This document shows, in pieces, positions 53,799 to 56,310 of a stretch of DNA of 64,000 bases. The translations under genes and the position numbers were made by a program. The notes below the pieces were generated by a model that saw nothing but the letters and a program-made list of their open reading frames with translations, had not been told where the DNA came from and did not search any database. Every line of letters begins with the position of its first letter. Position 1 is the stretch's first letter. The DNA is from Escherichia coli (GTDB taxonomy: Bacteria; Pseudomonadota; Gammaproteobacteria; Enterobacterales; Enterobacteriaceae), in assembly GCF_016026235.1 (NCBI RefSeq), contig NZ_CP065613.1. One strand, written 5' to 3'.

Positions 53799-54126
53799 TT
53801 ATGTTGGCGTTTTCTATTCAGTATAGAAGTCGGAGCGGCTGGGCGAGATGCGGAAGTTCTGGAATGTTTCTTTTTTTGATGATGGTGACTGAAGCAAATT
53901 GGCTACATTTTGCAATGTGACCAGTTGCGTCATAGTTGGCTGGCGGCGAAGAATTTTGACGATTGCGGCATGCAGAAAAAAACGGGTTCAGCTTCAGTTG
54001 ATTAAATGAGGAGTGAGAAGTCCGAAACAGGATTCACTGTATAAATAAACAGCCATTTTGTTGAGGAAGGGTAAGATAACGGCGGGTGCCTGAAGCTTTC
54101 CGGTTTCAGGTTTACTCTGAGGTCTG

Positions 54127-54185
54127 GAAAGATGAAGCCCCAGGAGATATTTCTATCAACCCTGGGGCTGCCACTCCAAACCAGA
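54127..54185 (-). ncRNA. sokE: Putative Sok-type antisense RNA, hok copy 1
   Basis: Placed by analogy with known hok/sok loci (antisense to the mok leader 45-100 nt upstream of hok); exact ends were not determined. Confidence 0.35.
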
Positions 54186-54229
54186 CAATTTGGATGGTAG
54201 TTCCTTCTTCGCATGGAGGCAATATAAAC

Positions 54230-54382
54230 ATGCTGACGAAATATGCCCTTGTGGCAGTCATAGTGCTGTGTTTGACGGTACTGGGATTTACGCTTCTGGT
54301 CGGAGACTCGCTGTGTGAGTTTACGGTGAAGGAACGTAATATTGAGTTCAGGGCTGTTCTCGCTTACGAACCGAAGAAGTAG
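54230..54382 (+). CDS. hokE: Hok-family type I toxin (50 aa), copy 1
   Basis: [50 protein letters not shown]; overlapped in frame by a mok-like ORF starting at GTG 54086. Confidence 0.88.
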
Positions 54383-54404
54383 CCGTTGTGCGGGGAGTAA
54401 TCCC

Positions 54405-55698
54405 CTGAGGGATCCCCAGAAAATTTAGTAAACCATTATCATATTGGTATACCGTTGCTGTAGAACTTTCAGCCCTGCGTCAAGTGACAGTGTGTTTAGT
54501 ATGAGTGGAGAATGTCGAATCACATTCTCCGCCAGTTTTAATAACGAGATGACTCGCCTGTGCTTCACTGTATTTGCCTGATATTTATGATGTATCCCTT
54601 TGTTTTCCAGGCTGAAACCGCTTAACCACATAATGATACTGGCTAATGTTGCGATCAGACTCAATACCGTGACCCGCCCGGATGAATGACTGGCACCAAA
54701 CCGTAGTCCAAATCCCCAGCGAGGATTTTTTTCATCCCTGAAATTTTGCTCAATTTGCATTCTACGGCTGTATAATTTCATTACCTGTTTTGGCGAGAAC
54801 TCAGTACTGTTTGTGAAAATAAACCATGGTGATTTCCCGGCAGTACGAGCTTTAGCCGTCACCGATGGTCTGGTTGCTCTTTCCTTCGAGCGTTTAAATC
54901 TACGACCTTTAGGCTTACTTTTATAAAGATAAAAATGCCCTTCATGTTGTGCATTTTTATCTCGACCCAGCAGGCCTTCACCTAAATAAATTGCTGTCGT
55001 TGATGCTTTTGTGCCTGAGTCCGACACCTTTTCCCAGCCATTACCAACATTGTAATAATGATTGCCCAGTACCCGGCAAATATAGGTCCAGCCACGGGAG
55101 CGGAGCTGTTGGAACCATCGCCCCTGAAAACCGGCATCTGTAATAACAATGACATCAGTCCCGGGGGAAAAGCACTCAGCAAGCGATTCCAGAAAACGCT
55201 CATGTACATCTGCATTCGCTGTCTGTGATGATGGAACGACACAACTCATCAACGGTAAAGAACGCCCGTCACATGCCAGGCTTGCCCGCAAAAGCTGAAA
55301 ACGAGAGGCATGATAAGCACTCCAGTCAATGAGTATCACAACACGAGACATTCCCCGCGTAATCTTTTGGGTAATTCGCTGAAAAATGGTGGAAACCTCA
55401 TTTTGCAAATGTCGATTCCCCAACAGTCGATCCACCCGCTTTATTTTGTTTTTAACTGATGCCGTACCGGTTAAATGACGCCCGATACTGGTAAGTGTGA
55501 GGGAAGCGCCATTTATTACAGCATTAGTTGCGTCAATCAGTGATTTTTGACGGTAAAGATGCAAAGGGGCCAGTATATTGTTAAGGAAATTTTGGCATAA
55601 TGAACGTGCAGGCATAGTGGTGATCTCCTTGAAATTGTTAGCACAATCAATTAGATCACATCTCACTATGCCTGTCTTGTTTTCTGGGGATTCCTCAG
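54405..55698 (-). mobile_element. IS4-family insertion sequence, about 1.3 kb (IS186-like by position and target, IS10-like by ends and transposase)
   Basis: Imperfect terminal inverted repeats ctgagggatccccagaaaa / ctgaggaatccccagaaaa; flanked by a roughly 10-bp direct repeat (gagtaatccc); inserted in a GGGG-N-CCCC hairpin 22 bp after the hok stop; boundaries uncertain by 1-2 nt. Confidence 0.8.
54425..55615 (-). CDS. DDE transposase, IS4 family
   Basis: 396 aa from MPARSLCQNFLNN; DDE residues (VILIDWS, VITDAGF) and the YSRRMQIEQNFRDEK signature; the 568-aa track ORF is a read-through from flanking DNA. Confidence 0.85.
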   Translation of the reverse strand: MPARSLCQNFLNNILAPLHLYRQKSLIDATNAVINGASLTLTSIGRHLTGTASVKNKIKRVDRLLGNRHLQNEVSTIFQRITQKITRGMSRVVILIDWSAYHASRFQLLRASLACDGRSLPLMSCVVPSSQTANADVHERFLESLAECFSPGTDVIVITDAGFQGRWFQQLRSRGWTYICRVLGNHYYNVGNGWEKVSDSGTKASTTAIYLGEGLLGRDKNAQHEGHFYLYKSKPKGRRFKRSKERATRPSVTAKARTAGKSPWFIFTNSTEFSPKQVMKLYSRRMQIEQNFRDEKNPRWGFGLRFGASHSSGRVTVLSLIATLASIIMWLSGFSLENKGIHHKYQANTVKHRRVISLLKLAENVIRHSPLILNTLSLDAGLKVLQQRYTNMIMVY

Positions 55699-55932
55699 GA
55701 GTAATCCCCGCATATCCGGTTGTCAGGTCAGGATGGTAAGGCACCTGCTTTACACTTTCGCCCGCGGTCAGTGATGGCTGCGGGCGATTTCGTTTTAAGA
55801 GCAATGATGAGTTTTGCCGACAGAAGTCCGAAACAGGACTCACTGTATAAATAAACAGCCATTTTGCTAAGGAAGGGTAAGATAACGGCGGGTGCCTGAA
55901 GCTTTCCGGTTTCAGGTTAACTCTGAGGTCTG

Positions 55933-55992
55933 GAAAGATGAAGCCCCAGGAGATATTTCTATCAATCCTGGGGCTGCCACTCCGAGCCTCAA
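55933..55992 (-). ncRNA. Putative Sok-type antisense RNA, hok copy 2
   Basis: Homologous position to copy 1; exact ends were not determined. Confidence 0.3.
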
Positions 55993-56036
55993 CAACTCGG
56001 ATGGTAGTCCCTTCTTCGCATGGAGGCAATATAAAC

Positions 56037-56189
56037 ATGCTGACGAAATATGCCCTTGTGGCAGTCATAGTGCTGTGTTTGACGGTGCTGGGATTTACGC
56101 TTCTGGTCGGAGAGTCGCTGTGTGAGTTCACCGTAAAGGAACGTAATATTGAGTTTAAGGCTGTTCTCGCTTACGAACCGAAGAAGTAG
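56037..56189 (+). CDS. Hok-family type I toxin (50 aa), copy 2
   Basis: [50 protein letters not shown]; intact 3' hairpin gcggggagcaatccccgc downstream. Confidence 0.85.
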
Positions 56190-56310
56190 TCGTTGTGCGG
56201 GGAGCAATCCCCGCATATCCGGTTGTCAGGTCAGAGTGGTAAGGCACCTGCTTTACACTTTCGCCCGCAGTCAGTGATGGCTGCGGGCGAATCGTACCAG
56301 ATGTTGTCAA

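Follow-up and report, generated by a model that had tools for sequence, protein, structure and literature searches.

The one-nucleotide length difference between the leaders of two hok copies in a 64,000-nt stretch of Escherichia coli DNA (hereafter, the window) probably represents two natural alleles of the tip of the Sok-target hairpin in a tandem hokE/sokE locus. The concomitant changes in the frame of upstream ORFs would be by-products of this variation. A preliminary description had read the indel as a switch in which upstream start codon is in frame with hok, i.e., a GTG in copy 1 and an ATG in copy 2, with possible differential regulation of the two copies. The underlying frame arithmetic stands, but the GTG is not a plausible start, and most of the apparent switch would follow from variation at the hairpin tip.

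Judging from homology and synteny, the region between ybdK and entD is the already known chromosomal hokE/sokE type I toxin-antitoxin locus, arranged here as a tandem pair. The order ybdK-hokE-entD agrees with the K-12 annotation of sokE and hokE in a synteny comparison; the K-12 locus (b4415/b4835) was reportedly described by Pedersen and Gerdes in 1999. Both coding sequences lie on the plus strand, specify 50-aa peptides, and pass the 22-bit cut-off of Pfam PF01848 (Hok/Gef), with 33.3 bits for copy 1 (54230-54382) and 32.7 bits for copy 2 (56037-56189). The preceding mRNA leaders, of 146 nt (54084-54229) and 147 nt (55890-56036), match the sok/hok leader model Rfam RF01794 over its full length and above its gathering score of 59 (54084-54238, 80.2 bits, E = 1.8e-17, and 55890-56045, 86.5 bits, E = 3.7e-19, respectively). 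The copy-to-copy junction was found in 3395 of 5426 E. coli genomes, and both copies are free of insertion sequences in Sakai and O145 strains. In the window, hokE copy 1 is split 23 nt past the hok stop by ISEc60 (IS4 family; 54406-55697; target duplication ggagtaatcccc). The element has moved the copy 1 fbi box 1.3 kb away, so that the displaced 3' UTR (55698-55795, plus strand) now carries the fbi motif AGGCACC at 55739-55745 and the terminator at 55758-55787. Copy 1 is in any case already parted from its 3' regulatory end. The copy 2 3' UTR (56190-56289, plus strand) is intact, with AGGCACC at 56242-56248 and a terminator hairpin at 56262-56289, and in the MFE fold of the full-length copy 2 mRNA the 5' tac sequence GGGUGCCU pairs with the 3' fbi sequence AGGCACCU.

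The length difference between ccactcc and atggtag is as originally noted, with 16 nt in copy 1 (aaaccagacaatttgg, 54178-54193) and 17 nt in copy 2 (gagcctcaacaactcgg, 55984-56000), and the substitutions mentioned with it amount to six alongside the one-base indel. This segment is a divergence hotspot, since 7 of its 17 columns differ versus 14 of 347 elsewhere in the aligned copies (Fisher p = 1e-5). A perfect match to a 90-nt stretch containing the 16-nt allele was found in 348 complete E. coli records, O157:H7, EDL933, Sakai, and O55:H7 among them, and the allele is also present in Escherichia sp. MOD1-EC7003, E. coli SCPM-O-B-8794, and E. whittamii. As far as sequence records tell, the 16-nt variant is a common natural allele. 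An assembly error, or the homopolymer sequencing error that the preliminary description had allowed for, is practically out of the question. Nothing but the single-base size of the indel speaks for it, and it is contradicted by the lack of a homopolymer, the accompanying substitutions, and the recurrence of the same allele in those complete genomes and in several species.

RNA structure prediction, which had been proposed for both leaders, places the variable segment at the apex of hairpin 3 (54164-54204 in copy 1 and 55970-56011 in copy 2, plus strand). In the MFE folds, this apex consists of a CCAAA/TTTGG stem with an 8-nt loop in copy 1 and a CCGAG/CTCGG stem with a 9-nt loop in copy 2. The hairpin is further backed by covariation; in an alignment of 55 leaders from more than 15 genera, the corresponding helix (helix 5) has 16 pairs, 6 of them changed on both sides, and 90% of its cells are paired. 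The window copies disagree at two of the covarying pairs, columns 104-118 (GC in 28 sequences, AU in 23) and 106-116. The copies thus differ by two compensatory swaps, A-U versus G-C, that keep the stem, plus one nucleotide of loop. Loops of both lengths are widespread in the family (8 nt in 21 leaders, 9 nt in 33). A YUNR U-turn is found in copy 2 (CUCA) and is absent from copy 1. We dropped this motif as a copy discriminator because just 28 of the 55 family loops contain it; for the same reason, the kinetic model of plasmid R1 may transfer incompletely to hokE.

The opposite strand of the variable segment encodes approximately the first 10 nt of the predicted SokE RNA, a stretch that closely follows the sok -10 box TACCAT. 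The arrangement TTGCCT-17-TACCAT, given as an RpoD promoter at ybdK/sokE (PMC3946193), is intact in both copies. Read from the minus strand, the -35 and -10 boxes lie at 54222-54217 and 54199-54194 in copy 1 (promoter 54194-54222; 17-nt spacer) and at 56029-56024 and 56006-56001 in copy 2 (promoter 56001-56029). Mapping of the K-12 sokE annotation onto the window positions Sok +1 inside the hairpin loop. With RNA ends taken from this annotation and the promoter position, copy 1 would specify a Sok of 59 nt (54128-54186, minus strand; positional homology to K-12 sokE b4835), made up of the 5' tail GUCUGGUUUG and a terminator hairpin, and copy 2 a Sok of 60 nt (55934-55993, minus strand; homology to K-12 sokE) with the 5' tail GUUGAGGCUC. 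In predicted folds, the initial 10 nt of each RNA are unpaired and precede a GC-rich hairpin and a U-rich tail. Both predicted Soks would therefore combine the attributes of cis-antisense RNAs, i.e., their own promoter, a free 5' tail, a terminator hairpin, and complementarity to the leader.

The role of the Sok 5' tail has been described for plasmid R1 (PMC1635323), where this single-stranded stretch makes the first contact with the target hairpin loop. By analogy, the same may hold for the hokE copies, and the main consequence of the indel would then be a separate Sok/target recognition sequence for each copy. Predicted tail-target duplexes, whose energies are not binding rates, reach -34.5 and -39.6 kcal/mol for the cognate combinations and -26.6 and -19.2 kcal/mol for the cross combinations. 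Cognate pairing is thus favored by a predicted 8-20 kcal/mol, and the remaining 49-50 nt of the two Soks are nearly identical. Since the RNAs differ at one position outside the tail, cross-repression may still happen. On the analogy with R1, paralogue-specific Sok recognition is a more likely outcome of the indel than uncoupling of copy 1. A stronger proposal is that the tandem copies are kept as orthogonal antisense/target specificities, with the 146-, 147-, and 148-nt leaders forming a natural allelic series, in which the upstream ORF is cut short, joined in frame to hok, or overlapping it out of frame, that would serve as a natural experiment on the requirements of mok-type coupling; we advance it only tentatively and with more doubt than conviction.

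The ORF frames reported earlier were recovered. The GTG ORF runs in frame through hok in copy 1 (54086-54382, plus strand; 98 codons), and its counterpart in copy 2 (55892-56125; 77 aa) is out of frame. The ATG(+49) ORF, with a GAGGT Shine-Dalgarno sequence (SD) in both copies, reads through hok in copy 2 (55938-56189, plus strand; 83 codons), whereas its counterpart in copy 1 (54132-54200, plus strand) comprises only 22 codons. Initiation at the GTG is another matter. A generic promoter/terminator scan missed the hok and sok promoters, and these were therefore set by homology and family alignment. The hok copy 1 -10 box TAAGAT (54072-54077, plus strand) lies 6 nt before the predicted mRNA +1 at 54084, and in the family alignment TAnnAT occupies -12 to -7, exactly 6 nt before GGGTGC, in 53 of 53 HokE-like loci. 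The Rfam model begins at the first G of GGGTGC, matching this 5' end. Because the -10 box is conserved at that distance, the GTG falls at mRNA positions +3 to +5, and without an SD it is no credible mok start; the involvement of the same 5' end in tac-fbi pairing also led us to reject it.

We consequently deem it very improbable that the indel leads to a GTG-initiated Mok in copy 1 and an ATG-initiated Mok in copy 2, with the two copies regulated differently as a result. The frames would allow it, and gene callers sometimes emit the 98-aa and 83-aa models. These database entries are, however, automatic calls named Hok, which are no proof of translation, and an exact-sequence look-up found the extended ORFs solely in the output of automatic gene callers, under the names Hok or MokC. 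Furthermore, frame relative to hok is not conserved among mok genes (PMC9841398): in K-12, mokC shares the frame of hokC, unlike mokB with respect to hokB, and R1 mok is out of frame as well. Coupling of hok to Sok control through translation of mok, the premise of the preliminary description, is established for plasmid R1, where what counts is that ribosomes reach the hok SD (PMC9841398). A frame shared with hok is not the property that matters for mok.

In a canonical mok, the 5' base of the target hairpin holds an SD, a start codon follows after 7-10 nt inside the stretch to which the Sok tail binds, and the ORF extends to the hok start region. At the start position so defined, occupied in R1, mokB, and mokC, no ATG, GTG, or TTG exists in any Escherichia hokE allele examined, and just 11 of 50 related loci from outside the genus show GAGG-7 nt-ATG there. 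The K-12 annotation contains no mokE, and literature searches on hokE/sokE, including ribosome profiling, returned neither a mokE definition nor translation data. AUG(+111/112) is conserved everywhere and was considered as mok; it was discarded because it lacks an SD and its complement forms the sok -10 box, which makes its conservation uninformative. ATG(+49), a candidate mok start, is the sole upstream start with an SD. Among the related loci compared, it is restricted to Escherichia, it is covered by the Sok 3' end, and its SD is base-paired in the predicted folds of both mRNA forms. The comparison with hok leaders of other strains that had been called for revealed lengths of 146, 147, and 148 nt, which place the ATG(+49) ORF in all three frames with Hok intact; in the 148-nt leaders, this ORF has 62 aa.

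Uncoupling of one copy, which the preliminary description had raised, is possible for hok copy 1 on sequence grounds because the ATG(+49) ORF is cut short in this copy, 30 nt before hok. If mokE translation did begin at ATG(+49), the ORF would, with the 8-nt loop allele, end at the UAG at 54198-54200, 15 nt before the hok SD, and hok copy 1 would go untranslated, the locus acting only as a Sok producer or decaying. The 8-nt spacing of the GAGGT SD and the position of ATG(+49) under the Sok 3' end are compatible with such a role, and in R1, toxicity is lost when mok terminates prematurely before the hok start. The ORF stays open across the start region of hok in 22 of 33 Escherichia copies, and the 16-nt allele is partnered by a read-through copy in 8 of the 9 examined tandem pairs that carry it. 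Moreover, E. whittamii has, besides the 16-nt allele, a +1 insertion that brings ATG(+49) and hok back into one frame, which hints that frame may matter in some lineages. Nonetheless, we consider this scenario rather unlikely. The 16-nt allele has a long history and a wide distribution among species, with Hok intact, one genome has two truncated copies, and the confinement of ATG(+49) to Escherichia and the predicted pairing of its SD add to the case against it. The UAG also overlaps the AUG at 54194 (AUGGUAG), which is in frame with hok, and termination-reinitiation could thereby preserve coupling.

Alternatively, chromosomal hokE loci might be largely inert, with the apex drifting within the limits imposed by hairpin stability and the overlapping sok promoter and with no effect on specificity or coupling. 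Chromosomal hok loci gave no post-segregational killing in earlier work (summarized in bioRxiv 10.1101/2025.08.07.668861), and both the repeated IS hits at the hokE locus and the wide variation of loop length and sequence fit neutral drift. Against it, Hok ORFs, promoters, tac/fbi boxes, and hairpins are conserved, with covariation, across genera. In addition, all 14 tandem pairs examined, which are phylogenetically non-independent, carry two different apex alleles, and these alleles swap between the first and second positions among the pairs. We therefore see inertness of the locus as conceivable but doubtful, and favor natural variation of the Sok-target hairpin tip.

If the indel is read as hairpin-tip variation, what looks like a start-codon switch probably reflects alleles that differ in the antisense-recognition hairpin of a toxin-antitoxin locus already known. 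The extended Hok models of 62, 83, and 98 aa, along with a 'frameshifted hypothetical protein' on the opposite strand, would then be annotation by-products of the polymorphism. Should the Soks be copy-specific, the paralogue discrimination of Sib/Ibs and Zor/Orz would extend to the hok/sok family, and the three leader-length classes would offer a simple test of coupling between the leader ORF and hok.

Sib/Ibs (PMC2943612) and the duplicated zorO-orzO/zorP-orzP of EHEC (PMC3919570) resemble the hokE pair in that the type I loci are repeated or arranged in tandem and their antitoxin RNAs vary in a short recognition region. Cognate-only repression has been shown experimentally for Sib/Ibs and Zor/Orz, whereas for the hokE pair it is suggested by sequence and duplex energies. 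hok/sok/mok of plasmid R1 shares with hokE the pairing of 5' tac with 3' fbi and a sok promoter overlapping the hok translation start (PMC9841398, PMC1635323). In both systems, a CCCC box has two possible partners, namely the 5' end and the G-rich target-hairpin base, and Sok combines a single-stranded 5' tail with a terminator hairpin. Inside the target hairpin, however, R1 has GAGG followed 7 nt later by the mok AUG, whereas hokE has GGGG and no start codon; unlike in R1, the only SD-preceded upstream start of hokE lies in hairpin 1, 99 nt before hok. mokC/hokC and mokB/hokB are like hokE in that upstream leader ORFs overlap hok. mokC is an in-frame extension comparable to the 83-aa ORF of copy 2, and the out-of-frame mokB parallels the 62-aa ORF of the 148-nt hokE leaders. 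Nevertheless, mokB and mokC begin 9-11 nt inside the Sok 5' end, whereas ATG(+49) of hokE is at the 3' end of the Sok-covered region. The closest relative is hokE/sokE of K-12, which shares with the window the ybdK/entD site, the leader, and the sok promoter and terminator, and whose Hok is 96-98% identical. K-12 likewise has an IS4-family element in the same GGGG-N6-CCCC hairpin just 3' of hok, but that element is IS186, to which ISEc60 of the window is unrelated. K-12 has a single hokE copy with the 17-nt allele, whereas the window has two copies, with the 16-nt allele in copy 1.

The best-supported reading of the two tandem hokE/sokE copies is that they differ allelically in the hairpin by which the antisense RNA recognizes its target, and that the upstream-ORF frame effects are by-products of this difference. 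The preliminary description had reported that the segment between ccactcc and atggtag differs in length by one nucleotide, and it does: 16 nt in copy 1 (54178-54193, aaaccagacaatttgg) and 17 nt in copy 2 (55984-56000, gagcctcaacaactcgg). This hotspot of divergence is genuine, with 7/17 columns differing versus 14/347 in the rest of the copy alignment (Fisher p = 1e-5). Retranslation of both copies also reproduced the frames described. On the plus strand, the GTG-initiated ORF is in frame with hok in copy 1 (54086-54382, 98 codons) and leaves hok out of frame in copy 2 (55892-56125, 77 codons); the ATG-initiated ORF is in frame with hok in copy 2 (55938-56189, 83 codons) and ends before hok in copy 1 (54132-54200, 22 codons).

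In its anatomy the region corresponds to hokE/sokE, a known system whose tandem duplication is also known and whose IS hotspot is recurrent. The gene order is ybdK, hokE copy 1, ISEc60, the displaced 3' end of copy 1, hokE copy 2, and entD. Both Hok peptides match the Pfam Hok/Gef profile, and the leader matches to Rfam RF01794 span the whole model in each copy (80 and 86 bits). Whereas K-12 carries only one hokE, opposite an annotated sokE and with IS186 just 3' of hok, the window has two copies and ISEc60. The tandem arrangement is common, since the copy 1 tail/copy 2 head junction occurs in 3395 of 5426 complete E. coli genomes; Sakai and O145 RM9872 have both copies without any IS, and tandem hok "islets" have been described previously (bioRxiv 10.1101/2025.08.07.668861). 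In O157:H7 Sakai (locus L059, 2094-2246 and 1591-1743), the second copy is annotated "mokC" and the Hok of the first carries L18P in its membrane helix. A RefSeq minus-strand "hypothetical protein" spans the hok leader and sok (window 54002-54214; loci L001 1705-1972, L002 1705-1973, and L004 1099-1367) and in many strains carries a flag for a frameshift or internal stop; the ORF is probably spurious, with a frame that these same indels switch.

ISEc60 (54406-55697, target duplication ggagtaatcccc) lies in a GGGG-AGTAAT-CCCC hairpin 23 nt past the hok stop (54383-54405 and 55698-55709). IS186 occupies the same hairpin in K-12 (locus L003, 2490-2510), each element having a target duplication of about 12 bp. 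Because blastn found no nucleotide similarity between ISEc60 and IS186, these are independent insertions into one hotspot. Whatever the frame effects, ISEc60 cuts copy 1 off from its own 3' regulatory end. A 568-aa minus-strand ORF (54425-56131) is the ISEc60 transposase frame, annotated at 396 aa in a related strain, with an upstream extension that runs antisense to hokE copy 2. E. coli FDAARGOS_943 (L001, NZ_CP065615.1) has the same insertion and the 16-nt allele in a single hokE copy, as would be expected if recombination between the repeated 3' tails had removed the second one.

As the preliminary description had proposed, we folded the leaders, and in both copies the variable segment forms the tip of leader hairpin 3 (54164-54204 and 55970-56011). 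We compared 54 HokE-like loci from species representatives of Escherichia, Citrobacter, Klebsiella, Kluyvera, Pseudocitrobacter, Enterobacter, and others, with 55 distinct sequences in the leader alignment. Across these leaders the hairpin has 16 pairs, in 6 of which both partners vary, and pairing holds in 90% of cells, a figure that falls to 34-54% when partner columns are slid. The copies differ by CCAAA/TTTGG (copy 1) versus CCGAG/CTCGG (copy 2), and the two differing pairs are the covarying columns 104-118 (GC 28, AU 23) and 106-116. The single extra base of copy 2 belongs to the loop. In the family, 33 leaders have a 9-nt loop and 21 an 8-nt loop, lineages without the upstream ATG included.

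Directly 3' of the segment, the minus-strand promoter TTGCCT-17-TACCAT is intact; it is the one catalogued for the ybdK/sokE spacer by RpoD SELEX (PMC3946193). By homology with K-12 sokE, Sok +1 would fall inside the hairpin loop, in which case the segment would encode roughly the first 10 nt of SokE. The resulting tails (GUCUGGUUUG in copy 1, GUUGAGGCUC in copy 2) are predicted to be single-stranded and are followed by a terminator hairpin common to both copies. In plasmid R1, the 11-nt Sok 5' tail first touches the loop of the corresponding hairpin in processed mRNA (PMC1635323). The full-length fold predicted for copy 2 follows the same scheme as R1: 5' GGGUGCCU pairs with 3' AGGCACCU, the CCCC box with the GGGG of the hairpin base, and the hairpin 5' arm with a 3' UTR segment, and the apex loop becomes accessible only once the 3' end is removed (predicted unpaired probability 0.24 to 0.82). 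The 3' UTR segments complementary to this arm, GGAUGGUA (55729-55736, copy 1 tail) and AGAGUGGUA (56233-56241, copy 2), pair with the Sok-target hairpin in the full-length fold, and here too the copies differ in sequence.

The preliminary description had proposed that the indel switches the in-frame upstream start, and that the copies may be regulated differently or one of them uncoupled. This mechanism is only partly supported, and its GTG alternative does not hold. In 53/53 loci, GGGTGC is preceded by a TAnnAT hexamer at a distance of exactly 6 nt (T 92%, A 98%, A 98%, T 100%), which places the mRNA start at the G that opens GGGUGCC and the GTG (54086) at +3 to +5; inspection of the leader found no SD for it, and we rejected it as a translation start. 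A conserved motif, TATAAATAAACAG, lies 31-44 nt 5' of the mRNA start (54040-54052 and 55846-55858) in Escherichia and several other genera (loci L014, L027, L037, L042, L052, and L055) and is a putative UP-like element or second promoter. Being in frame with hok also fails as a criterion. R1 has the mok SD at 105-108, the mok AUG at 116-118, and the hok AUG at 174-176 (PMC9841398), and Mok is therefore out of frame; toxicity is lost when mok stops prematurely, ahead of the hok start (PMC9841398). K-12 mokC shares its frame with hokC, mokB lies in a different frame from hokB, and each begins 9-11 nt inside the Sok 5' end. No Escherichia hokE allele has a start codon at this canonical position, which holds GGGG followed by CUGCCACUCC; GAGG-7 nt-ATG occurs in only 11 related loci (Klebsiella, Kluyvera, Pluralibacter, and Enterobacter), in frame 0 or frame 2. 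The sole upstream start with an SD (GAGGT, 8-nt spacing) is ATG(+49) (54132, 55938), whose SD lies in a predicted helix in either mRNA form and which is confined to Escherichia hokE, other genera having ACA, ACG, AAG, or GTG in its place. AUG(+111/112) (54194, 56001) is universal, complements the sok -10 box, and lacks an SD.

What stands of the proposal is that copy 1 might be uncoupled by its truncated ATG(+49) ORF, which we consider unlikely. Comparison with leaders of other strains, also suggested there, found the 16-nt allele in 348 complete E. coli records by exact match, including all listed O157:H7 and O55:H7 (2113 for the K-12 17-nt allele, 1099 for that of copy 2), and in three further Escherichia species-level genomes. 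Two variable sites, the loop (8 or 9 nt) and an optional C within hairpin 2, CAGGA(C)GATATT (L062-L069; L009 1054-1203), together yield three leader length classes among 33 Escherichia copies. The ATG(+49) ORF spans 22 codons in 146-nt leaders, with its UAG stop overlapping AUG(+111), 83 codons fused in frame to hok in 147-nt leaders, and 62 codons overlapping hok out of frame in 148-nt leaders. The ORF is of the read-through type in 22 of these copies and truncated in the other 11, and Hok is intact in 33/33. Strict dependence on read-through is argued against by the age and spread of the truncated allele and by a genome with two truncated copies (L006). Some constraint is nevertheless suggested by E. 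whittamii, where an extra C on the 16-nt allele restores the ATG(+49)-hok frame, and by the read-through partner copy in 8/9 tandem pairs with the 16-nt allele. Conceivably, AUGGUAG in the 146-nt class would allow termination-reinitiation onto the AUG in frame with hok.

Allelic difference in the recognition hairpin, the reading we favor, extends to all 14 tandem pairs compared (the window, L004, L006, L007, L009, L059, and L062-L069; 9 distinct allele combinations, not phylogenetically independent). In none of them are the two apex alleles alike, and a given allele can occupy either the first or the second position. Predicted tail-target duplexes favor cognate over cross pairs: Sok of copy 1 gives -34.5 kcal/mol with its own target and -26.6 kcal/mol with that of copy 2, and Sok of copy 2 gives -39.6 and -19.2 kcal/mol with the copy 2 and copy 1 targets, respectively. 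For the first 11 nt of Sok alone, cognate values are -17.5 and -19.5 and cross values -9.6 and -2.5. Outside the tail, the two Sok RNAs differ at only one position across 49-50 nt. Judged from sequence, tandem pairs may, though this is less likely than not, represent orthogonal Sok specificities together with a natural three-frame allelic series, the latter usable as a natural test of mok-type coupling. In their predicted duplex preferences the tails of the hokE pair resemble the Sib and Orz antitoxins, whose variable recognition regions give cognate specificity (PMC2943612; PMC3919570).
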